From positions 36,825 to 100,824 of the forward strand of contig CAYJQR010000001.1 in assembly GCA_964372345.1 (NCBI GenBank): a stretch of DNA of 64,000 nt, given 5' to 3'. The notes beneath the pieces were generated by a model that did no database searches, had not been told where the DNA came from, and saw only the letters and a program-made list of their open reading frames with translations. How positions within the stretch are numbered: the first letter of the stretch is position 1; each line of letters begins with the position of its first letter. Source of the stretch: an uncultured Planctomycetia bacterium. GTDB taxonomy: Bacteria; Omnitrophota; Gorgyraeia; JACOVV01. Below, in pieces: positions 2,122 through 62,373 of the stretch. The translations under genes and the position numbers were made by a program.

Positions 2122-5100
2122 AACGTACGACGTACGACGTACGACGTACGACGAATCTGGGATCGCTCTCATTATCGTCGTCAGTGTCCTCGCGATCGCC
2201 GGCGTGATGGCGGTCAGTTTTGCCTTCAGCCAGCGGTTGGAGCTGAAAGCGGCGGTCAACTACCAGCTCTCCGTCAAGGCGGGGTATATCGCCGAAGCCG
2301 GAATTCGCCACGCGGTGCAATTGTTAAAGGAAGACAAAGGGGTTAACGCCTACGACGCCTACTCGGAGCTGTGGGCGGCCAATTTTCAGGGCGAAGACGT
2401 TGACAACAATGGGGACGGCGCGGCCGATTCCCGATGGTTCGACTTCACGGAAGAAGGGGAGACGATAGGGCGTTACGCGGTATGGGTGGTTGACGAGGCG
2501 GGAAAGGTTAACCTGAACGCCGCTGGTTTTTACAATACTTCTCCTTTGAAGATCACGGAGGGATGGACTCCTTTCGAAGTGAGTCTTGAGAAATTATTGG
2601 ATGGTTTGACCGTGAGCAACGCTAAAGGATTGATGGAATCCATCCTTGATTATCGTTACGGAGGAGAGAGGGGACTCAAAGGAGGAATGGATAGCAGGGA
2701 TAATGATTTGGACGGATTGACGGATGAAAAAGGTTATCCCGGAAAAGATGACGATTCTTTCGACGATAATGGAAACGCGCGAGTCTTGGCTTATGACGGG
2801 ACCGATAATAACGCGGATGGAGTCCGCGATGAGCCCAATGACGGGATCAATGAACCGATGGAGTACAATCCCTGGGAACCGTACGCGGATGACCGGGTTT
2901 TCTTGACTACGGAACAGATCAAGGGGGTGGAGGGGGTCACGGAAGACGTTTTTCAAAAAATCCGGAACTTTGTAGGGACCCACTCCGCGGATAAGGAATT
3001 AAATTCTTATTCCAGGAATAGAATCTGCCTGAATCTGGCGACGGTGGATCAATTGTACAAAACCTTTCGTGAACGTGGAGTGGGACAACCGGCCCTCAAG
3101 GCGGTCCGGCTGAAGGATTGGCTGGACGCCGATTTGGAGCGGAGCAGTATCGTCAGGTTTGTCAAGGATCTGCCGGTTTCCGATCTTGGCAGCATTGGGG
3201 AGTGGAAGTGGGAAGGGGCTTATTATGCCAACAAAATTCCGGGGAGTGAACCCGGTCGGTGGCGGTGGATCGGTATCCCGGAAGGAAAATATTATGTGAC
3301 CTTGCTGGCGGATAAGCCGAACGACGTCGTTGGAGACGTCACGATCGCCGGTGAAGTGGTTCAAGAGATGAAACACGGAGACGCGTTTGTGACGGCAGAT
3401 TCCAACACGGTGTCTATCGGAGGCGATAGGAGCCTGACGGTGACGATCCAAAATAATCGGCAGGGAGAAGGGAGCGAGTGCCGTTTTCAAAAGATAGAGT
3501 TAGAACCGCAGGAAGGAATCCCCGCCGGCTTTAAGTCGGCGCCGGTTTATGGAGTGGAGGGGGTCAGGATCAACGAGCTGATGGTGAGGCCGATGGTGGA
3601 ACTGAATGTCAACCAGGGTCATGACCCTGGAGGGGACTGGAATTTCGAAGAGAATGGTTACGTCAACAGGAAACCGGCGGGGGGGACCATCGGAGAAGGG
3701 GTCTGGGAGTGGGAGGGCGTTCCTAATGGAACTTACTATGTGAATCTTTACGGGAAAGAAGACGGCAAGCCGGTCGGGGATGTGGAGATTAAGGGGAAGA
3801 AGAGTAGCCATTTTAAATCGGGAGGGAGATTCTCAGACACGGTAACGGTTTCCGGGGGATACTTAAGAATCGAAATCCAAAACAATGAAGAAAGCGAAAA
3901 CTGTGCTTTTTCCAAGGTGCGGCTCAGCCAGCAGCCGGATGATGAATACATCGAGTTAATCAACATTTCCCAGGATCCGATTTCGGTGGCGGGTTGGACC
4001 CTCGAGGGACCGGGCCCCGAAGGATGGCCGGCGACGATTCCGATTGAAACGGAACCGATTCCGTCGGGGGGGTATTTGGTTCTGGCGGTTGATTTGAATG
4101 ACAGCCAAACCGGCGTCTCAGGGAATGGGATCGCTTTCCATAAGAATAAGAACTGGGCCGAAGTTGACAACGCGGCGCAATTGCTGTTCAAGAATTCCGT
4201 CTCAGAGACAGGGGATCTCCTGAAAGACGGGCTTCAAATAGGATCGGAAACAGTCCGTCTGAAAAACACGGACGGCCAGGTGGTGGACGAAGCGGAATAT
4301 ACCTCTTATCCGGAGGCGAACAAGAGTTTAGAGCGGGCCAATCCCGCCGAAGACGCGGATTCCAACTCTAACGGCATCCAGGACGGGTTCTATACCACGA
4401 CCGGCCCCGGCGGCGGAACGCCCGGTAAAGAAAACAAGAACGTGGGATTGATTAAGGAATACAACGAATTCAACGACCCTGTTTACTACGATATCAACAA
4501 GGAGATCTGGATCAGGAATCGGCCTCTTCCTAACCTGGGGGTCCTCTCTGAACTTCCGATGCCAGGATGGACTCGTTGGAACTTGAGAGATCTGGGTTTT
4601 TTTGTGGACGATATCACTCTTCACGCGCAAAGATTGGAAGCCGAAGGACATCAACAAGAGGTCTCAGGATGGGCGGAGGTTCAACAGAGCGATCCATCGT
4701 CGAGCATTTTTCGTAGTCAACGGCTTGAAGAAGTGGGAGAATGGAGATGGGACAAGACCGATTTACTCAAGAACGGCTATTACACTCTGCGAATCTTCGG
4801 CAAGCCGGGACAGGGGGTACAGTGTTCCATCCGGTTGAAGGATGGAACATGGACGGAGTTTACCCCGGCGCTGACTCCGTCCAGCGATGGGAGTGTTGTC
4901 TATGGCGTGATTGGGATTGGCACCGGTGAGGAGACCGCCGTGGGAAAAAGGGTTCTCTCCCTGAAGCTGAAAAACGCTTCAGCGTCGGGAACAGCGACGT
5001 TTGACTACATCACGCTGGAGCCGTTCCCGGTGGTCTATGGAAAAATTAATCTCAACACGGCCCCTTCGGAGGTTCTGCAGGCGCTGCCTGGAGTGGATCA

Positions 5101-5350
5101 GACCCTGGCTGAAAAAATCATCGCGGCGCGCCCCCTTGGAGATTACCAGGGGCTAAAAAGAGGGGTTGGTGATTTAGTGACGAAAGGAGTGCTGACAACA
5201 GAAGATTCAAAAAGTTTTGAACAGTTTGGAAAGATGGCCAATTTAATCACCGTTCGTTCGGACGTCTACGAAGTCATTGCCACAGGACAATGGGTGCGTC
5301 ACGGGGTTGTCTTGGCTGAAAAGAAAATTAGAGTAGTGGTGGAGCGATGA
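2054..5350 (+). CDS. Giant GspK-like minor pseudopilin (1098 aa). It has an N-terminal pseudopilin-like transmembrane helix, a lamin-tail-like domain, three Trp-rich beta-sandwich repeats and a C-terminal helix-hairpin-helix. The start codon is uncertain.
   Basis: The hydrophobic N-terminus GIALIIVVSVLAIAGVMAVSFA and the C-terminus INLNTAPSEVLQALPGVDQTLAEKIIAARP are typical of GspK. EYIELINISQDPISVAGWTLEG matches the lamin-tail-domain signature. A motif of the form GEW-W-G...G.YYV.L.GK....GDV occurs three times. No ATG lies between the upstream stop (2121) and the transmembrane helix, so the start is either ATG 2054 (a 68-nt overlap) or non-canonical. Confidence 0.6.
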   Translation: MGIVVGKRRVSSQRLCGLRQTSKTYDVRRTTYDESGIALIIVVSVLAIAGVMAVSFAFSQRLELKAAVNYQLSVKAGYIAEAGIRHAVQLLKEDKGVNAYDAYSELWAANFQGEDVDNNGDGAADSRWFDFTEEGETIGRYAVWVVDEAGKVNLNAAGFYNTSPLKITEGWTPFEVSLEKLLDGLTVSNAKGLMESILDYRYGGERGLKGGMDSRDNDLDGLTDEKGYPGKDDDSFDDNGNARVLAYDGTDNNADGVRDEPNDGINEPMEYNPWEPYADDRVFLTTEQIKGVEGVTEDVFQKIRNFVGTHSADKELNSYSRNRICLNLATVDQLYKTFRERGVGQPALKAVRLKDWLDADLERSSIVRFVKDLPVSDLGSIGEWKWEGAYYANKIPGSEPGRWRWIGIPEGKYYVTLLADKPNDVVGDVTIAGEVVQEMKHGDAFVTADSNTVSIGGDRSLTVTIQNNRQGEGSECRFQKIELEPQEGIPAGFKSAPVYGVEGVRINELMVRPMVELNVNQGHDPGGDWNFEENGYVNRKPAGGTIGEGVWEWEGVPNGTYYVNLYGKEDGKPVGDVEIKGKKSSHFKSGGRFSDTVTVSGGYLRIEIQNNEESENCAFSKVRLSQQPDDEYIELINISQDPISVAGWTLEGPGPEGWPATIPIETEPIPSGGYLVLAVDLNDSQTGVSGNGIAFHKNKNWAEVDNAAQLLFKNSVSETGDLLKDGLQIGSETVRLKNTDGQVVDEAEYTSYPEANKSLERANPAEDADSNSNGIQDGFYTTTGPGGGTPGKENKNVGLIKEYNEFNDPVYYDINKEIWIRNRPLPNLGVLSELPMPGWTRWNLRDLGFFVDDITLHAQRLEAEGHQQEVSGWAEVQQSDPSSSIFRSQRLEEVGEWRWDKTDLLKNGYYTLRIFGKPGQGVQCSIRLKDGTWTEFTPALTPSSDGSVVYGVIGIGTGEETAVGKRVLSLKLKNASASGTATFDYITLEPFPVVYGKINLNTAPSEVLQALPGVDQTLAEKIIAARPLGDYQGLKRGVGDLVTKGVLTTEDSKSFEQFGKMANLITVRSDVYEVIATGQWVRHGVVLAEKKIRVVVER
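2123..2153. repeat. (CGTACGA) heptanucleotide tandem repeat, about 4.5 units.
   Basis: Sequence is acgtacgacgtacgacgtacgacgtacgacg, directly at the gspJ-like / gspK-like junction. It lies inside the putative N-terminal coding region of the 1098-aa ORF. Confidence 0.9.
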
Positions 5351-6945
5351 GAAAAACGGAAAATGGAAAATGGAAAGTGGAAAGTGGGAAAGACAAAAAT
5401 CCATTTTCCGGGTTTTATGTCTTGTTGATTGTTTTTGCTTTATCCATTTTCCATTCTCTATTTTCCATTTTCCCTGTTTACGCCGAGGCCAGCAAAAGTT
5501 CCAAGTTCACTCTCGATGCCGGAGGATTTGTTTCTGGAGGGGGCAGCGCTGAAAGCCCGACAATCAAATCTCAAGCCGGAAACCTGGGAGATTTCGCGGG
5601 AACAACCACCACCGCGACTTCCTCTGGAACTTCCTCATCGGGCGCGGCTTCCGCCGTGACTACGGTGAATCCGGGGCTTCTCCAGGTCATCGTGGGAGAA
5701 GGCGCTCATAGTGATTATCCTTTTGATATCAAGGAAATCATTGCTAAGGATTCTCCCATGGGAAGCGCCATCACTGCCGCCGACTGGCAGAAGGATAATG
5801 ATCCCTATTTCTACTGGACGGTTTATGGTCCGCCGGAAGGAGTCATCGGTTACAGTTTTGCTCTGAACGCGATTCCCGATGAAACAGTGGATGTGAGCGA
5901 TTCCAGTTTTTCCTATGCCGGGAAGAATATCTCCGACGGCAAGCATCTTTTCCGTGTCATTGCCCAGAGCGCCGCCGGCAAATGGGGAAGAGAAGGGGCT
6001 TTTGAAATCTGGATTGACGCGACGGCTCCATCGGTGGTTTCCTTTAATCCCGGGAACAAGGCCCTGCTGAATACGGCGACACCCCAGATCCAAGTCGCTT
6101 TAAAAGATGCTGACAGCGGCGTCAACCCGGATTCCGTTGTTTTAAAGGTGAATCGCGCCACGGTTGAGGTCCCTTTTGACGACCAACAGGGGGGCGTTAC
6201 TTACACGCCTGCTTCTCCGCTAAAAGAGGGGATTAATTCGATCACGTTCGACGCGCGGGATAAAACAAATAACGTCGCGGCGACTCTAGTCTGGAGCTTC
6301 ACCATTGATACCCAAGCGCCCGGCGGAAGCGTCGTCATCAATAACGGCGACGCGTCCACCACTTCTACCTCAGTCAAATTGACGCTCGCTGCGGAAGACG
6401 CGACGACTTCGGTTAAAGAGATGATGATCAGTAATCAACCTGATTTCGGCGGGGCGCGCTGGGAACCTTTCGTTGGTTTGAAAGATTCGTGGACACTCTC
6501 TCCGGTCAGCGGGGAACGGGCTGTCTATGTTAAATTTAAAGATGAAGCGGGCAATGAATCCGGCGCCTACAGCGACCCCATCGAATTGGTGATCATCGCT
6601 CCGGACACAACCATCACCAGCGGCCCTTCCGGGGTCACCGATCAGACAGCGGCGGCTTTCACTTATTCCGCTTCTGAGTCCGGCAGTTCTTTCAGGCGTC
6701 AAATTGACGGGGGGGATTGGTCGGAGTGGGGGACTGAAACCTGGGTGACGTTCACCGATCTTAAAAGGGGAAATCACTATTTCGGCGTCAAGGCCGGTAA
6801 AGATGTGGATGGCAATGGCACGATTGACGCCGACGAGGAAGATCCGACCCCCGCGACGCGAAGCTGGACGATCAGTGAAAGCGGCGGAACAGAAGCGATT
6901 AACTTACCACCGGAAAAGCCAGTGAAATATTGGTACAAAGAATAG
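5347..6945 (+). CDS. Secreted protein with Ig-like/Big-like beta-sandwich repeats. Possible pilus-associated adhesin or T2SS substrate.
   Basis: The N-terminal signal peptide is largely encoded by heptamer element A3 (hydrophobic core FYVLLIVFALSIFHSLFSIFPVYAEA). The sequence is Thr/Ser-rich with repeated modules reminiscent of bacterial Ig-like domains. The ATGA start overlaps the upstream gene. Confidence 0.5.
   Translation: MRKTENGKWKVESGKDKNPFSGFYVLLIVFALSIFHSLFSIFPVYAEASKSSKFTLDAGGFVSGGGSAESPTIKSQAGNLGDFAGTTTTATSSGTSSSGAASAVTTVNPGLLQVIVGEGAHSDYPFDIKEIIAKDSPMGSAITAADWQKDNDPYFYWTVYGPPEGVIGYSFALNAIPDETVDVSDSSFSYAGKNISDGKHLFRVIAQSAAGKWGREGAFEIWIDATAPSVVSFNPGNKALLNTATPQIQVALKDADSGVNPDSVVLKVNRATVEVPFDDQQGGVTYTPASPLKEGINSITFDARDKTNNVAATLVWSFTIDTQAPGGSVVINNGDASTTSTSVKLTLAAEDATTSVKEMMISNQPDFGGARWEPFVGLKDSWTLSPVSGERAVYVKFKDEAGNESGAYSDPIELVIIAPDTTITSGPSGVTDQTAAAFTYSASESGSSFRRQIDGGDWSEWGTETWVTFTDLKRGNHYFGVKAGKDVDGNGTIDADEEDPTPATRSWTISESGGTEAINLPPEKPVKYWYKE
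5358..5473. repeat. Heptamer inverted-repeat miniature element, copy A3. It is longer than A1/A2 and has exact terminal inverted repeats GGAAAATGG ... CCATTTTCC.
   Basis: Sequence runs ggaaaatggaaaatggaaagtggaaagtgggaaagacaaaaatccattttccggg ... ccattttccattctctattttccattttcc. The interior has a nested palindrome (aagacaaaa / ttttatgtctt). Confidence 0.8.
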
Positions 6946-6980: not shown

Positions 6981-7013
6981 CTGTACCCTGAACCCTGTAC
7001 CCTGTACCCTGAG
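6981..7013. repeat. (CCCTGTA/CCCTGAA) heptanucleotide tandem repeat, intergenic.
   Basis: Sequence is ctgtaccctgaaccctgtaccctgtaccctgag. A related copy cccctgtcccctgtaccctgaaac sits at 31974-31997. Confidence 0.85.
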
Positions 7014-15372: not shown

Positions 15373-16935
15373 ATGAATGTATTATCGGCGCTACTACTTG
15401 TTCTTAGTTATCCCCCCTTTAATTTCTGGTGGCTGGCGTGGCTTGGATTGATTCCGTTATTCACTTCACTCACCAAAACAAAGGATAGTAAACAATCATT
15501 TCTTCGGGGGTATCTCTTTGGTTTTCTTTTTTGGCTGGGAACTATTGGGTGGGTGGGCTACGTCACTATTTTCGGCGCCTTGATGCTGATCCTTTATTTA
15601 TCTCTTTATTCAGGTATCTTTGGATGGATTTTTTGGCGATTATGGAAGAAAAAAATTAGAGATTTTCGATTCATTCTGCTCATTTCTGGCGCGTGGACAA
15701 TCCTGGAATGGATTCGTTCTCATCTCTTCACTGGTTTTGGTTGGAATCTCTTGGCGTATTCCCAGGCGCCGAATCTACCGGTGATCCAAATCGCGGATCT
15801 CGTCGGGGCGTTTGGGGTGTCGTTTTTGGTGGTGTGGGTGAATGGGGCATTATTTTTGGCTAGGAGCTGGGAGCTAGGAGCTGGGAGCAAAGGCAAAATC
15901 AAAAGTTTTTTCTCCCAGCTCTTAGCTCCTAGCTCTCAGTTGACTTTTCTTCTGGTTATTCTCGTTTGTTCCTACGGTTTCTATCGTCTCAACGAAAAGA
16001 TACCCACAATTCCCGTCTCGATTGCTGTGATCCAAGGAAACGTCCCGCAAGACATCAAATGGGAAGATCAGTATCGTGAAGCGCTATTTCAACGGTATGA
16101 ACTCTTGACAAAAACGGCGACCTTGGATCATCCGCAGTTAGTCATCTGGCCGGAAACTTCCATCGTGGAAGATTTCAGCAATCCTGAGATTCAGAACCGA
16201 ATCGCCGGCATCGCCAGAGAGGCAAACAGTTTTCTCTTGGTCGGCGCTCCCTGGTCGAGTCAAACATCGGAAAATGGAAAATGCCCGCCGGAGGCGGGTC
16301 TGCCTCTTCAGCCGAAGGCTGATCAGCCTCAGGCTGAGGCAGAGAAAATAGAAAATAAAGAAGACATCGGCGGGCACTATTTCAACAGCGCTATTTTATT
16401 TGATCCTGAGGGGAACCTCGTTCAGAAATATGACAAACTCCATTTGGTTCCCTATGGTGAGTTTATTCCTTTTGAGAAACAATTCCCGTTTCAACGGAAC
16501 TGGATCGTCACCGGAGATTTTACTAGTGGGAAAGAACACACGGTCTTTACTACTCCCAGCTCCCTTCGACTTCGCTCAGGGCAGGCCCAGCTCCCTTCGA
16601 CTTCGCTCAGGGCAGGCCCAGCTCCTAGCCAGGTGGGTTTTTCCGTCTTGATCTGTTTCGAAGACCTCTTTCCTGATTTAGTTCGTCAATTTGTCAAGAA
16701 AGGGGCGCGGCTTCTGATCAATATTTCCAACGACGCGTGGTTTGGTGAAAGCGGCGCGGCGTTTCAGCACGCGCAGGCGTCTGTTTTTCGCGCGGTAGAG
16801 AACCGGGTCCCGGTGGTGCGGGCGACGAATACCGGTTTCAGTTGTTTCATTGATTCCCGCGGCCGTATTTATGAAAAGGCGCCGCCGTTTAAGACAGGAT
16901 ATCTCACAGCAAAGGTGGAAATCCCGAGCACTTGA
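15373..16935 (+). CDS. lnt: Apolipoprotein N-acyltransferase, carrying three in-frame repeat-element insertions.
   Basis: It has an N-terminal polytopic membrane domain plus a CN-hydrolase domain with a Glu (VIWPETS), Lys (YDKLHLVPYGEFIP) and Cys (ICFEDLFP) triad. The start was moved to ATG 15373 (MNVLSALL), which overlaps the secA stop. Confidence 0.85.
   Translation: MNVLSALLLVLSYPPFNFWWLAWLGLIPLFTSLTKTKDSKQSFLRGYLFGFLFWLGTIGWVGYVTIFGALMLILYLSLYSGIFGWIFWRLWKKKIRDFRFILLISGAWTILEWIRSHLFTGFGWNLLAYSQAPNLPVIQIADLVGAFGVSFLVVWVNGALFLARSWELGAGSKGKIKSFFSQLLAPSSQLTFLLVILVCSYGFYRLNEKIPTIPVSIAVIQGNVPQDIKWEDQYREALFQRYELLTKTATLDHPQLVIWPETSIVEDFSNPEIQNRIAGIAREANSFLLVGAPWSSQTSENGKCPPEAGLPLQPKADQPQAEAEKIENKEDIGGHYFNSAILFDPEGNLVQKYDKLHLVPYGEFIPFEKQFPFQRNWIVTGDFTSGKEHTVFTTPSSLRLRSGQAQLPSTSLRAGPAPSQVGFSVLICFEDLFPDLVRQFVKKGARLLINISNDAWFGESGAAFQHAQASVFRAVENRVPVVRATNTGFSCFIDSRGRIYEKAPPFKTGYLTAKVEIPST
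15859..15939. repeat. SWELGA-type palindromic element, copy B1, inserted in frame in lnt.
   Basis: Sequence is gctaggagctgggagctaggagctgggagc, a 24-nt interior, then ctcccagctcttagctcctagctctcag. It encodes ARSWELGAGSKGKIKSFFSQLLAPSSQL. A second copy sits in metG at 38848-38932. Confidence 0.8.
16269..16357. repeat. Composite miniature element in lnt: (GGAAAAT)2, a GC hairpin cccgccggaggcggg, a GGCTGATCAGCC-type palindrome, then (GAAAATA)2.
   Basis: Heptamers bracket two hairpins. It encodes ENGKCPPEAGLPLQPKADQPQAEAEKIENKE in frame. A sister copy sits in metG at 38472-38540. Confidence 0.8.
16555..16625. repeat. 31-bp direct tandem repeat (2.3 copies) inside lnt.
   Basis: The unit cccagctcccttcgacttcgctcagggcagg is repeated. 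It encodes SSLRLRSGQAQLPSTSLRAGPAPS in frame. Confidence 0.85.
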
Positions 16936-45056: not shown

Positions 45057-45089
45057 AGCATAATTGTTACATTTTATGTAATAATTATG

Positions 45090-46632: not shown

Positions 46633-46635
46633 ATA

Positions 46636-48210
46636 ATGATGACCAAAAAATCAAAAATTAAAATACCGCAAACAACGTCGGCGCAATTGAGTTCTATTAT
46701 AAAATCATGCCGCGATATCATGCGTAAAGATAAAGGATTAAACGGCGACGCGGATCGCCTTCCTATGCTTACCTGGATTATGTTCCTAAAGTTCCTCGAT
46801 GATATGGAAATGATGCGGGAAACCGAAAGCAAAATGGAAGGTAAAAAATATGTTCCGGCAGTTCACGCGCCTTATCGCTGGCGTGATTGGGCATCCAAAG
46901 AAGACGGCATTACCGGAGAAGAGCTGATTTCCTTCATCAATCATCAGGAATGCGTGCGGCCGGATGGCAGTCGCGGGCCGGGTCTGTTCACCTATTTACG
47001 GGCGCTTGAAGGCACCGGTCAAAAAAGAGATCGCCGTAACGTTGTTTCAACGGTTTTCCGCGGCACAGCAAACCGGATGCTTAATGGCTACCTTCTGCGG
47101 GATGTCATCAATAAGATCAATCAGATTCATTTTACCTCAACGGAAGAAATTCATACTCTATCCCATCTTTACGAAAGTCTTCTTAAAGAAATGCGGGACG
47201 CATCCGGAGACGCAGGCGAGTTCTATACTCCACGGGCAGTGGTCAAGTTGATGGTAGCGGTGGTCAATCCTCGGCTTGGCGAAACTGTGTTGGACCCGGC
47301 GTGCGGAACAGGCGGATTCCTTGTTGAGTCATTTGAGCATATCAAAAAACAGTGTAAAACAATTGCGGATCATAAAAAACTTCAAGAGGAGACGATCTTC
47401 GGAGGAGAGGCAAAGTCTTTACCGTATTTACTGTGTCAGATGAGTCTCCTTCTGCACGGGCTTGACTCTCCGAATATCGATCCGGGAAATTCCCTGCGGG
47501 TTCCCTTAAAAGAAATCGGTGATAAAGACCGCGTAGAGGTGATTCTGACCAATCCTCCTTTCGGAGGCGAGGAAGAAAAAGGCATTCAAGGTAATTTCCC
47601 TCAAGATAAACAGACGGCGGAAACCGCGCAACTTTTCTTACAACTGATTATGCGTAAATTGAAACGTCCCGGGCAGGGAAATAAAGGAGGCGGCCGCGCG
47701 GGCGTGATTGTTCCCAACGGCACGCTTTTTGGCGACGGCGTCTGCGCGCGGATAAAAGAAGAATTACTCAAGGAATTCAATCTTCATACGATCGTACGGC
47801 TGCCGAACGGTGTTTTCTCGCCATACACTTCCATACCGACGAATATACTCTTTTTTGACCGCGCCGGGCCGACAAAAGAAATCTGGTTTTATGAACATTT
47901 GCTTCCGGAGGGAAGAAAAAACTACACGAAAACAAAACCGATACAATTTGAAGAATTCCAATCATGCCTGGAATGGTGGGAGAAACGGGAAGAGAACGAA
48001 CGTGCCTGGAAGATCAAAGTCGAAGATGTTTTAAGATATGCCCAAGATGGTAATCTTATTTCAACCAACCTGGATATCAAAAACCCCAATACAGAGGACG
48101 CTTTTGAACATATGCCGCCGGAGAAGCTGATAGAGGATATTTTGGAGAAAGAAGAAAAAATTATGGTAATTTTGAGAGAAGTCAGTCAAATTCTAAAGGA
48201 AAAAATATGA
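46636..48210 (+). CDS. hsdM: Type I restriction-modification N6-adenine DNA methyltransferase subunit.
   Basis: An N-terminal HsdM_N helical domain, an AdoMet motif (DPACGTGGFLV) and the catalytic NPPFG. Confidence 0.9.
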   Translation: MMTKKSKIKIPQTTSAQLSSIIKSCRDIMRKDKGLNGDADRLPMLTWIMFLKFLDDMEMMRETESKMEGKKYVPAVHAPYRWRDWASKEDGITGEELISFINHQECVRPDGSRGPGLFTYLRALEGTGQKRDRRNVVSTVFRGTANRMLNGYLLRDVINKINQIHFTSTEEIHTLSHLYESLLKEMRDASGDAGEFYTPRAVVKLMVAVVNPRLGETVLDPACGTGGFLVESFEHIKKQCKTIADHKKLQEETIFGGEAKSLPYLLCQMSLLLHGLDSPNIDPGNSLRVPLKEIGDKDRVEVILTNPPFGGEEEKGIQGNFPQDKQTAETAQLFLQLIMRKLKRPGQGNKGGGRAGVIVPNGTLFGDGVCARIKEELLKEFNLHTIVRLPNGVFSPYTSIPTNILFFDRAGPTKEIWFYEHLLPEGRKNYTKTKPIQFEEFQSCLEWWEKREENERAWKIKVEDVLRYAQDGNLISTNLDIKNPNTEDAFEHMPPEKLIEDILEKEEKIMVILREVSQILKEKI

Positions 48211-49406
48211 AAAAGTGGGATAGATATAGCTTGGGAGAATTAATAACCTTAGAAAGAAGGCCTGTAGATGTTGAATTGGATAAAAGATATCAAGAAATCG
48301 GTATTTATTGTTTTGGTAGAGGAGTTTTTCATAAGCAACCGCGTACAGGATATGAAATAGGAAACAAAGCTCTCTTTTTAGTAAAAGAGAGAGATCTTAT
48401 ATTCCAAATAACATTTGCATGGGAGGGAGCCATTGCACTAATGAGTGATTCGGAAAATTGGATGTATGCGTCTACGCGTTTCCCGACTTTTCGTGCTAAT
48501 GAAAGAAAGTGCGATCCTAAATTTTTACTTTACTATTTCCGTACCCAGGAAGGGAGAGATCAGCTAGTAAAAATATCCCCTGGCTCAGCAGGAAGAAACA
48601 GAGTTCTAAGTCTCAAAAGAATGCCAGAGGTATTTATTCCACTCCCATCGCTTCCCGAGCAACACCGTCTCGTAGAATGTATCGAGGCAATCGTAGGTAA
48701 AATTGACGAGGCGAAAAGATTACGAGAAGAAGCACAGAAAGCAATAGATGCATTAATAGATGCGAAGCTACGGGGCCTAATTAATGAAAGCAACAAAAGA
48801 TACGAATGGGATTTCGGTCCTATTTCTAAATACGCAGAAGTCAATCCTTCTAGGCAAGGTCAGATCAAGTTGGCTGATAAAGATGTGGTCTCTTTTGTTC
48901 CTATGTCCGCTGTTGATGACATTACAGGTACCATCAAAGAGCGATTTATTAAACCCTACTATGAAGTTTCAAGAGGATATACATGGTTTAGAGAGGGGGA
49001 TGTTATATTCGCTAGAATTACGCCATGCATGGAGAATGGGAAATCGGCAGTTGCTGTTAATTTAGAAAACGGCCATGGATTTGGTTCCACCGAATTCCAT
49101 GTGTTAAGACCGGGGACTAAAATCTTAGCTGACTGGTTACATTTATTAATTCGCAGTAAAGATTTCAGAAGGGATGCGGAATCTTATTTCAAAGGGACAG
49201 CAGGTCAACAAAGGATCCCTCAAAGTTTTCTTGAAAAAAAAGAAATCCCCGCTCCACCGATACCAAAACAGAGGGAGTTAATAAATTATTTTAAGAAATT
49301 TACTGTGTGTCTTGCTGAAGAACACAAGATTGATGAAGAACGTCACGCCGAATTGAACGCTTTATTCCCTTCCGTATTAGACAAAGCCTTTAAAGGTGAG
49401 ACATGA
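48207..49406 (+). CDS. hsdS: Type I restriction-modification specificity subunit.
   Basis: A 399 aa product with two target-recognition domains separated by the conserved central helix (LPSLPEQHRLVECIEAIVGKIDEAKRL) and a C-terminal conserved helix. It is AT-rich, as is usual for hsdS. Confidence 0.8.
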   Translation: MKKWDRYSLGELITLERRPVDVELDKRYQEIGIYCFGRGVFHKQPRTGYEIGNKALFLVKERDLIFQITFAWEGAIALMSDSENWMYASTRFPTFRANERKCDPKFLLYYFRTQEGRDQLVKISPGSAGRNRVLSLKRMPEVFIPLPSLPEQHRLVECIEAIVGKIDEAKRLREEAQKAIDALIDAKLRGLINESNKRYEWDFGPISKYAEVNPSRQGQIKLADKDVVSFVPMSAVDDITGTIKERFIKPYYEVSRGYTWFREGDVIFARITPCMENGKSAVAVNLENGHGFGSTEFHVLRPGTKILADWLHLLIRSKDFRRDAESYFKGTAGQQRIPQSFLEKKEIPAPPIPKQRELINYFKKFTVCLAEEHKIDEERHAELNALFPSVLDKAFKGET

Positions 49407-52400
49407 TCCCTGTCTTTTTTTGCCATATCTGTGATGAGAAAGATAATTGTAGATTTGCGATTAGAATAGCTGAGAAGTTGCGAAAAGATATCACGGGAGT
49501 AGAACCATTTATTGCTTGCCAGGATGATAATTGGAACAATGCCAAAGAATTAAATACGGCATTAAATCACTGCTATCTTTTTATCGCAATAGTAAGCTCG
49601 GGGTTTCTGCAAAAGAATAATTGTGTTTCTGAATTGGAACAGGCAAGAGAAAGGAACCAAAAAAATGGGAAATTTCCTATTATTTTCCCGATACAATATC
49701 AATGCGACTCAAAAGTCATGGCCGATCTAGAGTTTTCTATAGATCAAGGTAAACAGACGGGAGAGAGATGGGTTGATTTCTCTAATGATAGCGAATATGA
49801 CGTCAAGTATGAAGAATTTTATAAAAGAATATATTCTACAATTCTTGATAGCAATCTGATAACCAACGAGGATTTTCACAAGGATTGTAAAGTTCTCGAT
49901 GTTGTTTTAAGAGAAGATGAGCCAACCTCGGGTTTCGTAAAGACAGCGATAGATTATTGCCGAAGGGGTGAAGAATATGGTTTTTATTTTTTTAAAAATC
50001 TTTCGAATCCAAAATGGCTAAGCCATTTATATGCGGCGGGATTTTTTAACAATAATCCCTCTCCTGTAGAATCTGAGAAAAATGCCGGCTACTATAATAT
50101 CAATATCCCTTTTTGGACGGTATTACCTTATCTAGAGAAAGTAGCAGAAAATCTTCGGGGTAGACCGACTTTTGTAATAATTGATATTATACGTAAGGTT
50201 ACAAGGCCGGTTGCTCCAGTAAAAAAACAAGACAACTATCACACCTGGTATTCCTTCATCAAGATCATGGCGAACCTGCCGCCTGATGTTATTCAATTGG
50301 AGGACATTGATCTCGTCGCTGACTGGCTGGAGAGTAGATTTGATGTTTCTCTTGTGATGCACGAAGTCGGCAGGACATTTTTGCCGAAACTGCTTTCCAC
50401 GCAAGGAGAAGACTTGCGGAAAGTTACGCGTCTTATCGAAATTGTTATAAATTCGATTAAGGTTGAAAAAAGACATAGCGTCGAAGTCCGTGGGCTTCAA
50501 GAGATGTTTGAACTGAATGCTTCACAATTGGGCGAGAAATGCGGCAAGGAGATTGTGGAAGTTCTTAAAAGGAAAATAGAGACAGTGATCGCCGCGGAAG
50601 ACGATACATACAGCTATATATGGCGGCCCGCTATTGAGGACCATGAGCAGAATGTTGGCGACGGCGAATACCGGCACATCTTGATTGCGGGCTTGCGGGA
50701 TGTGCTTTTAGGATTCGCCTCTAAACAAGATGCTTCAGGGATGATCCAGACGTTTTTCCAATCAGAAAAATACATTATCAGACGTATCGGATTATATGTT
50801 TTAGATAAGCTGTTTGAAAAGTTTAGGTATAAAGAATTGGCCGAACAGGCCATTCAAGATGAGATGAGAGAACTATTACTCAAGAGCAATTATCACCACG
50901 AATGGTATCTGTTTATAAAAACTCACTTTAATACTCTTTCAAAGGAGGTTCAAAAGAAGCTTATCGAGTATATCAGCACCCTAAAGGGAGATTGGCGGGA
51001 TGCCGCGGATAAGGAGAGATTTAATATAGAGCTTCGGCGCCAGTGGTTTGGCGCGATTCAATCCTCCGGATATCAACTGCCTGCCGAAATAAAACAACGA
51101 TATCGTGAAGGGATTAATGCTGAATCCGAACACCCAGAGTTTTTAGGTTATATGGGCCCTGTTTCGTGGGGGGATGAAAATGTCTTTTCCGTGAGTGAAT
51201 TATTGGCTCAAGGAAGCGCCGAAAACATTATTTCATTTCTTAATGGCTATCGGGGGAAGAACCGGTTTGGTAAACCGGCTATCCGTGAATCAGGGCAGTC
51301 TTTGAAAGCGGCCGTTAAGGCAAAACAGGATTTTTTTGAAGGAAATCTTGATAAATTTAAAGAGGTAAAATGGGAGTATTGGTACTACCTGTTGGACGCT
51401 TTTGAAGAGCTATGGGATGATAAAAAACAGATTGACTGGAATAAAGTACTAGCGTTTTGTTCGTCAATAGTCCATCAGGATTTCTTGTACCAAGAAGAGG
51501 AAAAGAAAGATAACCACCCGCTTTACCCTAAGGAAAGTTGGGTCATTTCTGTCATCGCAGACCTGATTAAGAAAGGGGTTCAGAATGATGAACGGACGAT
51601 GCCGGATGATTGTTTAGATAATGCCGAACAGATTATCAGGATCATGCTAGGGAAACAGAAAGCAGAGGCAACCGGGAAAGAAGATAGCGCTTTGAACGAA
51701 GCGATGAACACAACCAAAGGGCGCGTCTTAACGTGTTTCATCAGTTATGCCTTGCGGCGGTACAGAACTTATGAAAGGCTGCCTGAGAAAGGCATTAAAG
51801 AAAAGGAATCGTTCTGGGGAAAAATAGAACCTCTCTTCGACGAGGAGATCAAAAAAACAAAAGAAGGAAATTTTGAGTTTTCAAGCATTGCGGGGGCGTA
51901 TCTTCCCAACCTTTTTTATTTGAATAACGATTGGGCCGAGAGAAATATCAATCATATATTTTCACAAGAGGAAAAGCACTGGCGCTGCGCTATGGCGGGA
52001 TATGCGTATGTCAGTACTGTCTATTCAGTTATTTATGGCTTGTTGAAGAAGAACGGCAACCTTAAACGCGCTCTTGATACGGAATTTACCAATGACAATG
52101 TAAAAGAGCGGATCGTCGAAAATATCGCGGTCTCCTACTTAAGGGGGCAGGAGTCTTTAGACGGCGAAGGGAGTTTATTTAAGTACCTGCTTGAGAAATG
52201 GCAGGTAAAAAACATTGAAGATACTATTGATCTTTTTTGGGCTCATCGGGATGTCGAGTTAAATCGTGAACAGAGAGATCGAATATATGGCTTTTTGCGG
52301 TATTGTTTTAACCGCGTCAAAGGGCATGAAGAGGAAAACAAAGGGATCCTTTCCGATTTAAACCTGTTGGCCGTATTCTTGTGCGAAATCAACAATGAGC

Positions 52401-52702
52401 AAAAAGATTGGCTCATGCAATCTGTTCAACATGTAGAGGAACGCTATCACAGTTCATTCTTTCTGGAATACTTGGATAAATTAGCCGCTATTAACCCGAG
52501 AGAGGCGGGCGAAGTTTTCCTTGAAATGTTGAATAAAACTGTACCCCCATACAAGGAAGAAAATGTAACATCAATCGTTGAAAAAATCTACAAAGCCGGA
52601 TTCAAAGAGATAGCTAATCTAATCTGCGATAAATATAAGCGAAATGGGCATGACTTCTTAGATGACCTTTATAATCGGTATAATTCAGCTAACATTAAAT
52701 AG
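49403..52702 (+). CDS. Large (1099 aa) protein with an N-terminal TIR-like domain and a long helical repeat region of unknown function. Translationally coupled to hsdS.
   Basis: Residues 1-140 follow the TIR motif order: VFFCHICDEKD (betaA) ... VEPFIACQDD ... YLFIAIVSSGFLQKNNCVSELEQA ... KFPIIFPIQYQCDSKV. There is no P-loop or nuclease motif. GC content is about 40%. The ATGA start overlaps the hsdS stop. Confidence 0.55.
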   Translation: MIPVFFCHICDEKDNCRFAIRIAEKLRKDITGVEPFIACQDDNWNNAKELNTALNHCYLFIAIVSSGFLQKNNCVSELEQARERNQKNGKFPIIFPIQYQCDSKVMADLEFSIDQGKQTGERWVDFSNDSEYDVKYEEFYKRIYSTILDSNLITNEDFHKDCKVLDVVLREDEPTSGFVKTAIDYCRRGEEYGFYFFKNLSNPKWLSHLYAAGFFNNNPSPVESEKNAGYYNINIPFWTVLPYLEKVAENLRGRPTFVIIDIIRKVTRPVAPVKKQDNYHTWYSFIKIMANLPPDVIQLEDIDLVADWLESRFDVSLVMHEVGRTFLPKLLSTQGEDLRKVTRLIEIVINSIKVEKRHSVEVRGLQEMFELNASQLGEKCGKEIVEVLKRKIETVIAAEDDTYSYIWRPAIEDHEQNVGDGEYRHILIAGLRDVLLGFASKQDASGMIQTFFQSEKYIIRRIGLYVLDKLFEKFRYKELAEQAIQDEMRELLLKSNYHHEWYLFIKTHFNTLSKEVQKKLIEYISTLKGDWRDAADKERFNIELRRQWFGAIQSSGYQLPAEIKQRYREGINAESEHPEFLGYMGPVSWGDENVFSVSELLAQGSAENIISFLNGYRGKNRFGKPAIRESGQSLKAAVKAKQDFFEGNLDKFKEVKWEYWYYLLDAFEELWDDKKQIDWNKVLAFCSSIVHQDFLYQEEEKKDNHPLYPKESWVISVIADLIKKGVQNDERTMPDDCLDNAEQIIRIMLGKQKAEATGKEDSALNEAMNTTKGRVLTCFISYALRRYRTYERLPEKGIKEKESFWGKIEPLFDEEIKKTKEGNFEFSSIAGAYLPNLFYLNNDWAERNINHIFSQEEKHWRCAMAGYAYVSTVYSVIYGLLKKNGNLKRALDTEFTNDNVKERIVENIAVSYLRGQESLDGEGSLFKYLLEKWQVKNIEDTIDLFWAHRDVELNREQRDRIYGFLRYCFNRVKGHEEENKGILSDLNLLAVFLCEINNEQKDWLMQSVQHVEERYHSSFFLEYLDKLAAINPREAGEVFLEMLNKTVPPYKEENVTSIVEKIYKAGFKEIANLICDKYKRNGHDFLDDLYNRYNSANIK

Positions 52703-52756
52703 ACCACCGGACGTAGTTCGCAGGGGACACTATTTAAAAAAACTGAGGATTTTGGG

Positions 52757-53089
52757 ATGATCCCACCACCTCTTTGGGCTGGCGCCGTTGGAGAAATAAA
52801 ATTGCACTATGTATATTTACTTCGCAGTGTAGAGAGCGGACAACTCTATCTTGGTTGGACGACAGATCTCCAACGGCGCCTGAACGAACATAACAATGGG
52901 GATTCACTAGCGACTCGTAATAGAGGTCCTTATGAATTGATTTATTTTGAGGCATATCGGTTCAGAGAAGAAGCCGTGGCGAGGGAACAGTCGCTTAAAA
53001 AACATCCCAATGTGATAAAGCAATTAAAGGCACGATTATATCGGAGTCTCGCCACGGCTTCTTCTGTCCCCAAAGAGGTGGTGGGATGA
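52757..53089 (+). CDS. GIY-YIG nuclease superfamily small protein.
   Basis: HYVYLLRSVESGQLYLGWTTDLQRRLNEHN is the GIY-YIG signature. An alternative TTG start lies at 52802. The gene is bracketed by inverted ATCCCACCACCT motifs. Confidence 0.75.
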   Translation: MIPPPLWAGAVGEIKLHYVYLLRSVESGQLYLGWTTDLQRRLNEHNNGDSLATRNRGPYELIYFEAYRFREEAVAREQSLKKHPNVIKQLKARLYRSLATASSVPKEVVG

Positions 53090-55920: not shown

Positions 55921-56825
55921 ATGAGTTCAGTTTCATCAAAAGACTTTCCCAATCCATCAAGACAAATCGCTCAGTCATCGTCGGGATTGGGGATGACGCG
56001 GCGGTTCTTCAATATAAGAAAGACCGCTATCTTCTTTTTACGACTGACATGATCGTGGAAGGAACGCATTTCCTTTTAAAGAGCGCGGCTCCTTATCAAA
56101 TCGGCTGGAAGGCGATGGCGGTGAACCTGAGTGATATTGCGGCCATGGGAGGATTGCCTCGATGGGCGGTGGTGTCGCTGGGGGGGCCGTTTCAAAGACG
56201 GAAAATGGAAAATGGAAAATGGAAAATAGAAGAATTTGTCTGGGAAATTTACCGAGGGATGAGCGCGGTGGGCAAGAAATTCGGCGTTCAGATTGTGGGA
56301 GGGGATACCGATAAGGCGGACCGGTGGACGATCAACATCGCGCTATTGGGAGAAGTAGAAAAAAAATATCTAAAACTTCGCTCAGGAGCGAAAGTGGGTG
56401 ATCGGGTCTTTGTCACGGGTTCACTCGGCGGCTCGATTCATGGGAAACACCTGACTTTCATTCCTCGAGTCAAAGAGGCCCGCTATTTAGTCACTCATTA
56501 TCCGGTGACCAGCATGATGGATCTCTCGGACGGCCTGGCGAGCGACCTTTGCCGGATCATGGAGCAGAGCAAGGTTGGAGTCCTGATTGATGAAGAAAGA
56601 ATCCCTCTTTCAAAAGAGGCAAAGGACTCGCGAAGCGCTTTCTGCGATGGGGAAGATTTTGAATTATTATTTACGGTGCCAAAATCCGCGGGCGAAAGAT
56701 TAGAGAGGAACGTCCCCTGGGCGCGTCTGATTGGAGAAGTGACGCCTGCTTCGCGAGGACTACGGATGAGAGATCGAACTGGGCAGGTGCGGACGGTCGC
56801 ATGGAAAGGGTTCGAGCACTTCTAA
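55917..56825 (+). CDS. thiL: Thiamine-monophosphate kinase, carrying an in-frame heptamer insertion.
   Basis: An AIRS-family N-terminus (FSFIKRLSQ...GIGDDAAVL). The insert RRKMENGKWKIEEF sits at 56200-56232. Confidence 0.75.
   Translation: MNEFSFIKRLSQSIKTNRSVIVGIGDDAAVLQYKKDRYLLFTTDMIVEGTHFLLKSAAPYQIGWKAMAVNLSDIAAMGGLPRWAVVSLGGPFQRRKMENGKWKIEEFVWEIYRGMSAVGKKFGVQIVGGDTDKADRWTINIALLGEVEKKYLKLRSGAKVGDRVFVTGSLGGSIHGKHLTFIPRVKEARYLVTHYPVTSMMDLSDGLASDLCRIMEQSKVGVLIDEERIPLSKEAKDSRSAFCDGEDFELLFTVPKSAGERLERNVPWARLIGEVTPASRGLRMRDRTGQVRTVAWKGFEHF
56200..56232. repeat. (GGAAAAT)3.5 heptamer array, copy A5, inside thiL.
   Basis: ggaaaatggaaaatggaaaatggaaaatagaag. Confidence 0.85.
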
Positions 56826-61085: not shown

Positions 61086-61107
61086 ATAACCTGAAAGGTG
61101 GAAAAGA

Positions 61108-62373
61108 ATGAAACGCGATATTCAAAGTCTGGCTCTAGCGGATAAGGGAAAAGACCGTATCGAGTGGGCGGGACAAAGTATGCCGGTTGTTCTTTCGATC
61201 CGCAAGGATTTCTCCAGCGCCAAACCGCTCAAGGGAGTGAGGATCGGCGCTTGTCTTCACGTGACTTCCGAAACAGCCAATCTGATGATCACTTTGAAAG
61301 AAGGGGGAGCCCATGTTTCTCTCTGCGCGTCGAATCCGCTGAGCACTCAGGACGACGTGGCCGCTTCGCTGGTGAAACATTACGGCATCCCGGTCTTCGC
61401 CGTCAATGGAGAAAATTCAAAACGGTATTACCGTCATATTCAGGCGGTTCTGGCCGCCAATCCACAGGTCACTATGGACGATGGAGCCGATTTAATCTCA
61501 ACCCTCCACCGAACTCAAAACTCGAAACTCGAAACTCAAGACTCAATCTGGGGTTCTACTGAGGAAACAACAACAGGAGTCATTCGTCTCAAGAGTTTGG
61601 AAAAAGCAGGGAAACTTCGGTTCCCGGTCATCGCGGTCAATGAAGCACAAACCAAACATCTTTTCGACAATCGCTACGGCACAGGCCAGTCAACGCTCGA
61701 TGGCATTATCCGGGCGACGAATCACCTGATCGCCGGGCAAATATTCGTCGTGGCCGGCTATGGCTGGTGCGGCAAAGGGGTGGCGATGCGCGCCAAGGGA
61801 TTAGGGGCGCAGGTGGTCGTTACTGAGATAGAACCGCTCCGGGCATTGGAAGCGGTCATGGACGGCTTTTCCGTCAAGACGATGGCCGAGGCGGCTCGAA
61901 TTGGCGATATCTTTGTAACGCTGACCGGAGACCGCGACGTGATCAGAAAAGAACATTTCCTAAAGATGAAAGACGGAGCAATTCTTGCCAACTCAGGGCA
62001 TTTCGACATTGAAATTGATATTGCGGCCCTGAAAAAACTGAGCCGGAGAACCCGCAGAATCCGTTCGTTTGTGGATGAGTATGTTTTACGGGGTGGAAGG
62101 AAGATTTACGTTCTTGGGGAAGGCCGCCTCGTCAACCTAGCGGCGGCAGAGGGGCATCCTGCCAGTGTCATGGATTTAAGTTTTGCCAATCAATCGCTGT
62201 CAGTAGAATATGTGGTTTCTCACCACGAGGAATTAAGAAATAAAGTCTATGCGGTTCCTGAAGAGATTGATCGTAGTATCGCTCAATTAAAGTTACGGGC
62301 AATGAAAATTTCCATTGACGCTTTGACGCGGGAACAAAGAGATTATCTGAAGTCGTGGCAGCTTGGGACGTAA
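61108..62373 (+). CDS. ahcY: Adenosylhomocysteinase, carrying an in-frame heptamer tract.
   Basis: An NAD-binding GYGWCGKG. The 421 aa product has the insert [11 protein letters not shown]. Confidence 0.9.
61512..61549. repeat. (AACTCGA/AACTCAA) heptamer tandem repeat inside ahcY.
   Basis: aactcaaaactcgaaactcgaaactcaagactcaatc. Same ACTCGAR family as the holB tract. Confidence 0.85.

Follow-up and report, generated by a model that had tools for sequence, protein, structure and literature searches.

Heptanucleotide tandem repeats as in-frame insertions in housekeeping genes of a Candidatus Omnitrophota genome fragment

Introduction

This report concerns heptanucleotide tandem repeats in a 64,000-nucleotide stretch of contig CAYJQR010000001.1 (assembly GCA_964372345.1), which was analysed as a whole and which we refer to as the window; all positions are those of the window unless another sequence is named. 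A reading of the letters alone, hereafter the original prediction, had pointed to such tracts in lolD, holB, metG, thiL and ahcY, at the start of a gspK-like gene and between genes, and had interpreted them as potential slipped-strand switches resembling the contingency loci of Haemophilus and Neisseria. We find that the tracts are enriched, that they are inserted in frame into conserved proteins and that orthologous tracts evolve in concert, and we argue that they are probably tolerated simple repeats rather than switches.

Several kinds of bacterial repeats offer points of comparison. Short tandemly repeated repetitive (STRR) sequences are said to have been described from cyanobacteria by Mazel et al. 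in 1990. Rickettsia palindromic elements (RPEs), which Ogata et al. reportedly recognised in 2000 as selfish DNA inserted in frame in protein-coding genes, are homologous elements of ~100-150 bp with a family consensus. In Nostoc, small dispersed repeats (SDRs) of 21-27 nt, which form hairpins and insert into other repeats, were reportedly described by Elhai et al. in 2008. According to those passages of PMC4679880 and PMC4692102 that draw on Mrazek 2007, an enrichment of 7-mers has already been described for some bacteria, and heptanucleotide repeats are the most abundant class of long simple sequence repeats (LSSRs) in many bacteria, mostly in intergenic positions. As the cause of the heptamer excess, these passages propose slippage of the polymerase over a footprint of ~7 nt, and for Xanthomonas and 'Maribeggiatoa' the two papers give ~170-190 heptamer sets per genome. 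Intergenic TAACTGA direct repeats are known from marine Beggiatoaceae (PMC4679880), and GGGNATC G-quadruplex repeats from Xanthomonas and Nostoc (PMC4692102). Phase variation in Escherichia coli K1 involves the (AAGACTC)n tract of neuO, an accessory surface-modification gene, in which 3-53 units occur and 66% of the alleles are OFF (PMC13001214), and the HMW adhesins of Haemophilus influenzae have 7-bp repeats in their promoters (PMC8262952).

Results

Period-7 tracts in the window

The window was assigned to Candidatus Omnitrophota by its MetG and LolD homologues, and 94.6% of it is covered by long open reading frames (ORFs) on the + strand. Pfam backs the gene calls for T2SS-F, a GspK-like protein, Lnt, LolD, HolB, MetG, ThiL and AhcY. 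Tandem Repeats Finder (TRF) returned 40 rows for the window, of which 19 are non-overlapping period-7 arrays with 3.0-5.6 copies, belonging to at least seven unit families. Ten of these arrays make up five inverted pairs, located at 1034-1118, 1489-1563, 5353-5473, 15859-15935 and 38848-38931. TRF, an exact-run scan and the sequence itself agree that all tracts listed in the original prediction are present, at positions within a few bases of those given, and that about half of the tracts had been missed, among them the five inverted hairpin pairs and two more sites in metG. The repeats are as follows.

1034-1118, + strand: hairpin of (AAAATGG)5.1, an 18-nt spacer and (CCATTCT)4.4 in the 5' leader-peptide region of a pseudopilin gene (1037-1474), right after the gspF stop codon; RNA fold -32.8 kcal/mol, z = -5.3; member of the 85-nt dispersed family D1
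1489-1563, + strand: second copy of this hairpin element, in the leader region of a pseudopilin gene (1471-2121); 95% identical to the first copy including the spacer, with unrelated flanks; fold -34.5 kcal/mol, z = -5.9
2123-2153, + strand: (ACGTACG)4.4 right after the upstream stop codon, GspK-like gene (Pfam T2SSK and HHH_3); in-frame reading TYDVRRTTYDE from an upstream TTG or GTG
5353-5473, + strand: hairpin pair (AAAATGG/AAAGTGG)5.6 ... (TCCATTT)4.4 at the start of a gene for a secreted Ig-like-domain protein (5347-6945, Pfam Big_13); resembling a signal peptide, with a charged N-region encoded by the left arm and a hydrophobic core by the right one; fold -50.5 kcal/mol, z = -7.1
6981-7011, + strand: intergenic (CTGTACC)4.4, ending 8 nt upstream of the ATG at 7020
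15859-15935, + strand: hairpin pair (GCTAGGA/GCTGGGA)4.3 ... (CTCCTAG)3.4, in frame in lnt, past the part for the N-terminal membrane domain and ahead of that for the CN-hydrolase domain; fold -55.3 kcal/mol, z = -8.4
16269-16364, + strand: (GGAAAAT)2 remnant, nested period-15 hairpin mini-elements and (AGAAAAT)2, in frame in lnt; families D5 and D6; 92% identical to the metG composite; fold -39.1 kcal/mol
16555-16625: perfect 2.3 copies of the 31-nt unit CCCAGCTCCCTTCGACTTCGCTCAGGGCAGG, in frame in the CN-hydrolase domain of lnt
21137-21169, + strand: (GAAAATG)4.7, in frame in lolD, encoding ENGKWKMENGK in the context ...GEVMLRT(ENGKWKMENGK)DKVSLYE...
31973-31994, + strand: (CCCTGTC/CCCTGTA)3.1 at the 3' end of ispD or just past it, ending 8 nt upstream of the ispF ATG at 32002
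37234-37264, + strand: (ACTCGAG)4.4, in frame in holB, encoding QLETRDSRLET in the context ...HT(QLETRDSRLET)EENWPC...
38478-38538, + strand: metG site 1, (GAAAATG)3, a nested 30-nt hairpin element (38499-38528) and then AAAATGGAAA
38848-38931, + strand: metG site 2, in-frame hairpin pair (GCTAGGA)4.1 ... (CCAGCTT)4.7; weaker fold, -36.5 kcal/mol, z = -2.7
39327-39357, + strand: metG site 3, (GGACGAG/GGACGAA)4.4 with period 7/14, in frame, encoding KDEGRRTRDE
56200-56231, + strand: (GGAAAAT)4.6, in frame in thiL, encoding RKMENGKWKIE
61512-61546, + strand: (AACTCAA/AACTCGA)5.0, in frame in ahcY, encoding a peptide of 13 letters (not shown)

With the 31-nt-unit repeat counted, lnt contains three separate repeat insertions in total.

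Perfect period-7 runs of at least three units occur nine times in the window according to the exact-run scan, compared with none in dinucleotide shuffles and none at periods 5, 6 and 8-15. Likewise, at a threshold of 20/24 matches, a lag scan picked up 16 lag-7 segments, compared with zero at lags 4-6, 8-13 and 15. The density of period-7 arrays amounts to 29.7 per 100 kb, which is 11 times the 2.7 per 100 kb in a background set of 1.32 Mb from 79 other, unrelated genomes; the background loci came from a MetG-query genome scan, in which the matches listed were all from distant genomes, the best among them being Ca. Saelkia with 49% identity. Densities similar to that of the window were found in three related genomes, and the distant Omnitrophota genome L007 has no such array. 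Since the tracts cover ~0.9% of the window and the global lag-7 autocorrelation (0.2527) is not raised, the period-7 signal consists of discrete tracts only and is not spread over the sequence. The original prediction was thus right about the enrichment but overstated it in saying that a 7-nt periodicity dominates the genome.

A position 150 nt or more inside an ORF is found for ten of the 19 window tracts and for 21 of the 34 tracts of the clade, compared with 0 of 28 in the other heptamer-rich genomes of the background (Pelotomaculum, Dialister, UBA4049). The heptamer-rich background genomes, namely Pelotomaculum propionicicum (L014), two of Dialister (L078 and L080), the firmicute UBA4049 (L022) and L010, also have inverted pairs, as well as arrays of up to 16.6 copies, all of them outside long ORFs.

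A metagenome scan with (GGAAAAT)3 retrieved more than 120 unrelated contigs (L094-L213) with GC contents of 0.34-0.66, in which further period-7 arrays are present (examples are L094 545-618, L178 300-331 and L130 5546-5688) and none of which comes from the window's species. Some of the (GGAAAAT)n tracts in these contigs are in frame in MoaA-like, CoaBC-like and histidine-kinase genes, as read by eye rather than checked with Pfam, so that intragenic heptamer tracts would not be unique to the clade. A viral scan with the same query gave 8 matches, mainly in metagenome-assembled genomes (MAGs) of giant viruses, and was uninformative. A cyanobacterial origin of the window, suggested by one GCGATCGC close to the first tract and by the STRR-like character of the repeats, was rejected, as the window has 4 HIP1 sites only and its MetG and LolD homologues are from Omnitrophota.

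In-frame insertion into conserved proteins

The intragenic tracts are all in frame, both in the window and in the relatives examined. The position of 7-mers inside coding regions was confirmed, the tracts of lolD, holB, metG, thiL and ahcY each having conserved domain sequence on both sides. It also holds that gain or loss of a unit shifts the frame, as the tracts are inside ORFs and 7 cannot be divided by 3.

The MetG of the window has 572 residues, compared with ~510 in typical Omnitrophota MetG. In an alignment of MetG sequences (A1), the three tract sites are gaps in distant Omnitrophota (~54% identity), and inserts at the same three sites are found only in the closest relatives (64-85% identity), with differing sequences; site 3 is a 30-nt insertion relative to the sequences L089 and P0004. 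An AlphaFold2 model of the protein has a mean predicted local distance difference test score (pLDDT) of 81.7 and five segments with a pLDDT below 50, of which residues 147-160, 274-290 and 426-433 are sites 1, 2 and 3, respectively, and the others are residues 348-350 and the C-terminal tail. In this model, the tract peptides of MetG are outside the folded core. LolD is ~13 residues longer than solved structures and, as in MetG, distant Omnitrophota orthologues are without the tract. HolB has a 13-residue insert before a Cys-rich module relative to solved clamp-loader subunits. The differences are smaller in ThiL, which is ~6 residues longer than solved structures, and in AhcY, which exceeds PDB 7o5l by 3 residues and in which the tract mostly replaces a native variable segment. 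With regard to RPE-like features, MetG, LolD and HolB thus have an in-frame insertion that is lacking in orthologues. All tract-bearing proteins are singletons in their own 90% clusters, in which no length variants could be read.

The peptides encoded by single-arm tracts are hydrophilic: a Kyte-Doolittle value of -1 or lower is found for 14 of the 15 single-arm intragenic units of the clade, compared with 38% of random stop-free heptamers (Mann-Whitney P = 6e-5). The complementary arms of the hairpins encode hydrophobic peptides (PFSILHS, SIFHSLF), which are part of leader or signal peptides or of the membrane protein Lnt. In the GCTAGGA tracts, the sole copy with a would-be in-frame TAG reads TGG, in lnt as well as in metG, which has to be taken as one observation because the two copies are related. 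The original prediction stated that every unit is free of stops in all six frames. This applies to the consensus units it listed, but not to GCTAGGA, with TAG on both strands, nor to the AACTCAA copies, with TGA on the reverse strand. Six-frame stop avoidance was also discarded as a significant signal: among random heptamers, 65% have no stop on the forward strand and 49% have none on either strand, which gives a chance of 0.76 per unit to be stop-free in reverse given forward, and four of the 15 clade units do have reverse-strand stops.

Owing to their lack of stops, the tracts are read through by gene callers and in ORF lists. The MetG record P0006 (L089 344-445) has a spurious N-terminal extension of 34 residues through a (TCATTTG)4.7 tract, and the ispD ORF of the window (31941-31995) is extended through the CCCTGTC tract.

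Turnover and homogenisation of orthologous tracts

For comparison, we used a sister consisting of a syntenic genome (L003, identical to L004) and of the contigs L091 and L092, with ~90% nucleotide identity to the window. Between window and sister, 19.6% of the 4-fold degenerate sites differ. In holB, metG (three sites), thiL and ahcY, the codon positions of the window's tracts are taken up by period-7 arrays in the sister, too. The tract lengths are identical in holB, at metG site 3, in thiL and in ahcY, and at metG site 1 as well if the nested 30-nt element of the window is subtracted. In holB, the sister tract of the same length consists of degenerate units. The units at four other sites compare as follows.

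thiL: window (GGAAAAT)4; sister (GGAAAGT)3 + GGAAAAT
metG site 1: window (GAAAATG)3; sister (GAAAGTG)4.3, without the nested element
ahcY: window AAACTCG; sister (AAGTACG)4.7, same total length
metG site 2: window GCTAGGA/CCAGCTT hairpin; sister CCACTAC; GCA_023248175.1 ACTCACG; GCA_023248195.1 AAGGGTC

All three mismatches in thiL and all three at metG site 1 fall in one phase, with the same A/G change at both loci. In ahcY, 20 of 35 positions differ between window and sister, and the differences cluster by phase (P = 0.02). At metG site 2, each of three relatives has a single heptamer tract at the same codon position, and all of them are different. Orthologous tracts thus evolve in concert. 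The combination of perfect identity within tracts and divergence between species at or above the neutral level shows homogenisation to be ongoing.

At the lolD site, the sister has no tract but just one GGAAAAC, in the place of 30 extra nt in the window, and conversely the sister has (CTGTACG)5 upstream of holB, where the window has no tract. Length differences among the relatives at intragenic sites are 0, 9, 21, 30 and 42 nt, all of them in frame; 21 nt are three units (window vs the LolD sequence P0134) and 42 nt are six units (window vs sister, metG site 2). A single-unit step was found between two 99.9% identical assemblies of one relative (L089, NCBI GCA_023248195.1; L090, ENA ERZ27276474), whose only length difference amounts to precisely one CTTGCCC unit and lies downstream of metG, in an intergenic tract; on these contigs, no change is seen in two tracts within metG and in one at its 5' edge. 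Slippage by a single unit is thus real, and has so far been seen only where the frame is irrelevant. Another pair of sequences, L087 and L088, differs by 16 single-nucleotide polymorphisms (SNPs) and no indels. Logan contigs of ERR4904390, ERR4904391 and ERR3478686, runs that are possibly not independent of the MAG, have the same tracts as the window in thiL, in ahcY and at the ispD end; the ispD-end tract (31973-31994) is invariant in two Logan contigs, and the exact ThiL protein of the window is present in Logan ERR4904391. An exact-protein look-up of the tmk product of the window gave no match. The original prediction held invariant tract lengths and a lack of 7-mer enrichment to speak against it: most intragenic lengths are indeed the same in the sister, but the enrichment is present and one intergenic tract differs by 7 nt.

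These comparisons also bear on an origin of the tracts as an artefact of assembly or sequencing. Tracts do disturb short-read assembly: the Logan contig L093 (ERR4904390; corresponding to 18977-21140 of the window) stops 4 nt into the (GAAAATG)n tract of lolD, giving no information on its copy number, and shared tracts can thus fragment de Bruijn assemblies. Tracts are found, however, at orthologous positions in independent NCBI, JGI, ENA and Logan assemblies, and they preserve the reading frames of conserved genes, which leaves an artefact with next to no credibility.

Inverted pairs and 30-nt hairpin elements

The five inverted pairs fold to -33 to -55 kcal/mol, four of them with z scores of -5 to -8 and the metG pair with z = -2.7. 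A role as terminators was rejected, as none of the hairpins precedes a T run and two are inside essential ORFs. In addition, hairpin units with a period of 15 (e.g. TCAGCC-AAAG-GCTGA), mostly in the form of in-frame doublets of 30 nt, are located at 38499-38528, 16284-16345 and 31178-31252. This family is nested in the heptamer tracts of metG and lnt and also occurs upstream of ispD. A 30-nt copy of the sister species, TCCGCCAAAGGCGGATCCGCCTCTGGCGGA, lies in a gene for a GAF-HisKA kinase (L092 5795-5824) and is absent in L091. The strains represented by L091 and L092 are 99.95% identical, and the only 3 SNPs in 5.8 kb are all directly beside the 30-nt element.

Sequence sharing among the repeats is limited to some sub-families (D1, D6, D8), and units otherwise differ between loci, even at orthologous sites; a single family with a consensus sequence, as in RPEs, was not found. 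The window contains no transposase, and hairpin arms exist.

Tracts at gene starts and gene boundaries

In an alignment of GspK-like orthologues (A3), the proteins start 4-6 residues before a KGIALI motif, and in the window this place is occupied by the ACGTACG tract. As there is no canonical start codon after the tract in the window gene, translation must begin upstream, at TTG 2054, GTG 2081 or TTG 2105. In the hairpins with an AAAATGG arm, this arm has an ATG in each of the three frames, and its slippage would thus alter the leader without abolishing translation. Judged by position, phase variation may be reasonable only at the four elements at the 5' ends of pilus, secretion and surface genes (1034-1118, 1489-1563, 2123-2153 and 5353-5473).

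According to the original prediction, the tracts would be contingency loci in housekeeping genes, in which slipped-strand gain or loss of units toggles genes in subpopulations, as in Haemophilus and Neisseria or in neuO of E. coli. A one-unit change does shift the frame, the one-unit polymorphism in the relative (though intergenic) shows such changes to occur, neuO proves that coding heptanucleotide tracts can switch, and the four 5'-end elements are plausible phase-variable targets. At the assembly level, however, we found no out-of-frame allele at intragenic tracts in four genomes (the window, the sister, GCA_023248175.1 and GCA_023248195.1), and tract lengths are kept between species that differ at a fifth of their 4-fold degenerate sites. 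The tracts are short, with 3-5.6 units compared to 3-53 in neuO. The hosts metG, holB, lolD, lnt, thiL and ahcY are housekeeping genes, and because several of them are normally essential (metG, holB, lolD, lnt), an OFF state would be lethal. Restriction-modification genes are a classic site of contingency repeats, but the type I restriction-modification genes of the window (42.7-49.4 kb) have no tract according to TRF. The AAAATGG arrays at 5' ends, finally, would buffer slippage rather than switch. A function as contingency loci is thus very unlikely, and what stands of the slipped-strand idea is that the tracts slip and homogenise, as seen from the L089/L090 indel and the concerted unit changes.

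Each of the three CTGTAC(C/G)-family tracts ends 8-10 nt before a start ATG (at 7020, at 32002 and that of sister holB, L003 8966-9000), in the position of a ribosome-binding site. This placement resembles that of TAACTGA in Beggiatoaceae and, together with the high stability of the hairpin pairs, would fit functional cis elements, i.e. RNA or DNA structures or protein-binding arrays (heptamer binders of the Csp, S1 or CsrA type, RNase III hairpins) that steer translation or mRNA stability. Unit sequence is not kept at orthologous sites, however, and tracts were gained or lost between sister species in lolD and upstream of holB. Moreover, the hairpins are without trailing T runs, and Rfam yielded no family at gathering score anywhere in the window, hairpins included. 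Altogether, a function in cis appears highly improbable.

Other features of the window

Nearly all long ORFs of the window (1-64000) are on the + strand, with start/stop overlaps, and the GC skew is positive in each 4-kb bin, such that the cumulative skew climbs monotonically. The region 39817-53089 is a defence-type island of low GC content (0.40-0.46), absent from the sister and without a heptamer tract. It encodes a DUF4143 ATPase, a DUF2130 protein, type I restriction-modification HsdR/M/S with embedded AbiEi/AbiEii, a TIR-domain protein of 1099 residues and a GIY-YIG nuclease. Direct repeats of 123 nt (40828-40950 and 42532-42654; 97% identical) lie on either side of the DUF2130 gene. Small toxin genes, for a ribonuclease toxin of the BrnT family and a PIN-domain protein (16975-17286 and 35282-35689), are located amid housekeeping genes.

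Discussion

We propose, with a probability of roughly 0.68, that the tracts are slippage-prone heptanucleotide simple repeats of the LSSR/STRR type which persist in genes as tolerated in-frame insertions and not as switches. Tracts would arise and then be kept homogeneous via strand slippage or intra-tract conversion in 7-nt register, and some copies would spread to new sites or turn into inverted pairs that form hairpins. With a genome that is ~95% coding, most new tracts would fall in genes, where selection would leave only frame-keeping, hydrophilic versions free of in-frame stops, in surface loops, in leader or signal peptides and at gene boundaries. What remains would be selfish or neutral in-frame loop insertions, functionally like RPEs. 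The enrichment, the in-frame insertion, the loop location in the MetG model, the hydrophilic bias, the concerted evolution and the one intergenic polymorphism are observations described above; the role of slippage as the homogeniser, the neutrality of the insertions and the reason for the period of 7 nt are inferred.

Several observations weigh against this proposal. Pure slippage by 7 nt cannot yield the 30-nt differences at lolD and metG site 3, nor does slippage explain the narrow length range of 3-5.6 units. A homogenisation that is length-neutral in essential genes needs steps of three units or conversion in register, neither of which was seen directly. The same A/G unit variant separates the species at metG site 1 and in thiL, which hints at exchange between loci or at a trans-acting template. 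The 7-nt polymorphism is a single case, and the Logan contigs may share samples with the MAG. Finally, unrelated loci have non-repeat flanks or spacers in common (95% identity in family D1, 87% in D3 and 92% in D6), which suggests copying of pre-formed pieces.

Such copying is the core of the main alternative explanation, in which tracts and 30-nt double hairpins alike are pre-formed pieces of ~30 nt laid down by a lineage-specific trans-acting mechanism, with slippage being secondary; candidate agents may be a short-homology copy-paste process, a stuttering polymerase or a reverse transcriptase. It would account for 30 nt as the quantum of insertion at lolD and metG site 3 and as the size of the nested element, for the presence or absence of the 30-nt element in nearly identical strains with three adjacent SNPs resembling a conversion patch, and for dispersed copies with common spacers or flanks (D1, D3, D6, D8). 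Unit families moreover recur at unrelated loci and in other species (GGAAAAT, GTACGNN, ACTCGAR, and 'SWELGA' peptides in lnt, metG and the LolD sequence P0131), the shared A/G variant splits two species at two loci, and heptamer-rich genomes are phylogenetically sporadic. On the other hand, the left flank of the lolD tract with one GGAAAAC proto-unit is already present in the tract-less allele of the sister, which fits an origin in situ. No transposase, terminal inverted repeat or target-site duplication was identified, the last within the limits of a search that was not systematic, and the units are too diverse for one template. Selection for multiples of 3 could alone give sizes of 27-36 nt, and the differences of 21 and 42 nt are three and six units, as slippage predicts. 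We therefore consider pre-formed pieces an unlikely origin. A transmissible, lineage-specific mechanism that writes ~30-nt repetitive modules (heptamer arrays, inverted pairs and double hairpins with 15-nt period), essential genes included, and leaves to slippage only their maintenance, is in our judgement rather unlikely too. If true, it would constitute a new class of ultra-small templated insertion elements and would explain the sporadic heptamer richness in Omnitrophota, Pelotomaculum, Dialister, cyanobacteria and Beggiatoaceae.

The proposal of tolerated LSSR/STRR-type repeats agrees with the known repeats in many respects: units of 7 nt are arranged head to tail, period 7 is over-represented, many loci and several units per genome are involved, the phylogenetic distribution is sporadic, about four units are preferred and polymerase slippage has been proposed as the cause. 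The differences concern position and density. In the passages on LSSRs referred to above, the described cases are mostly intergenic and scarce in coding sequence, whereas here at least half are in frame in conserved housekeeping genes, and the density of ~30 per 100 kb is several-fold higher by our estimate from the counts given above and genome sizes. The TAACTGA and GGGNATC repeats likewise form heptamer arrays of 2-6 units, often just before starts or just past stops, and the CTGTACC family is placed alike; theirs, however, is one dominant intergenic unit per genome, in one case containing stops, whereas the window has many families that are mostly intragenic.

With neuO, the tracts share that they are coding heptanucleotide repeats without stops, which give a 7-residue repeat in all three phases and a protein only when the frame is kept, and the 5'-end tracts of the pilus and secretion genes are placed like the neuO tract. 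They differ in having 3-5.6 units and no OFF alleles found, in keeping their lengths between species and in residing mostly in essential genes. A single base separates the AAGACTC of neuO from the holB unit GAGACTC, and likewise from the ahcY unit GAAACTC, and the peptides of holB and neuO are alike (RLETRDS vs KTQDSRL, the latter from our translation of the neuO unit). A match with one mismatch to the neuO unit is expected by chance in about 1 of 5 cases, by a rough calculation with ~10 families and both strands.

The likeness to RPEs lies in in-frame repeats in conserved genes that are absent from orthologues, in tolerated surface peptides and in some dispersed hairpins. Here, however, the common trait is the 7-nt period and not a sequence, and the elements are 21-120 nt long and internally homogenised. 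Finally, the 30-nt double-hairpin element resembles the SDRs of Nostoc in being nested in other repeats, namely the metG and lnt tracts, and in being polymorphic between strains of the sister species. It differs in lineage and sequence and by being in frame in coding sequence.

In the literature, we found no account of tandem repeats in Omnitrophota, nor of heptamer tracts as a systematic feature of housekeeping genes. To our knowledge, the tracts of this Omnitrophota lineage, which occur at high density, are mostly intragenic and in frame in essential genes, are stable in position yet fluid in sequence and include inverted pairs in ORFs, are thus an apparently undescribed variant of LSSR/STRR repeats.

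For genome annotation and assembly, the tracts have the effect that ORFs are extended, the start codon of the GspK-like gene is displaced and short-read contigs are broken. They also caution against taking every frame-shifting repeat within a gene for a contingency locus, and show that repeats whose length is not a multiple of 3 can densely colonise essential proteins where intergenic space is scarce. In MetG, HolB, LolD, ThiL, AhcY and Lnt, the tracts provide a natural map of insertion-tolerant loops. Because they are homogeneous although selection forbids single-unit steps, they offer a clean test system for repeat homogenisation, and a clade in which nearly identical strains differ by indels of 7 and 30 nt lends itself to asking why the period is 7 and why such repeats are sporadic.

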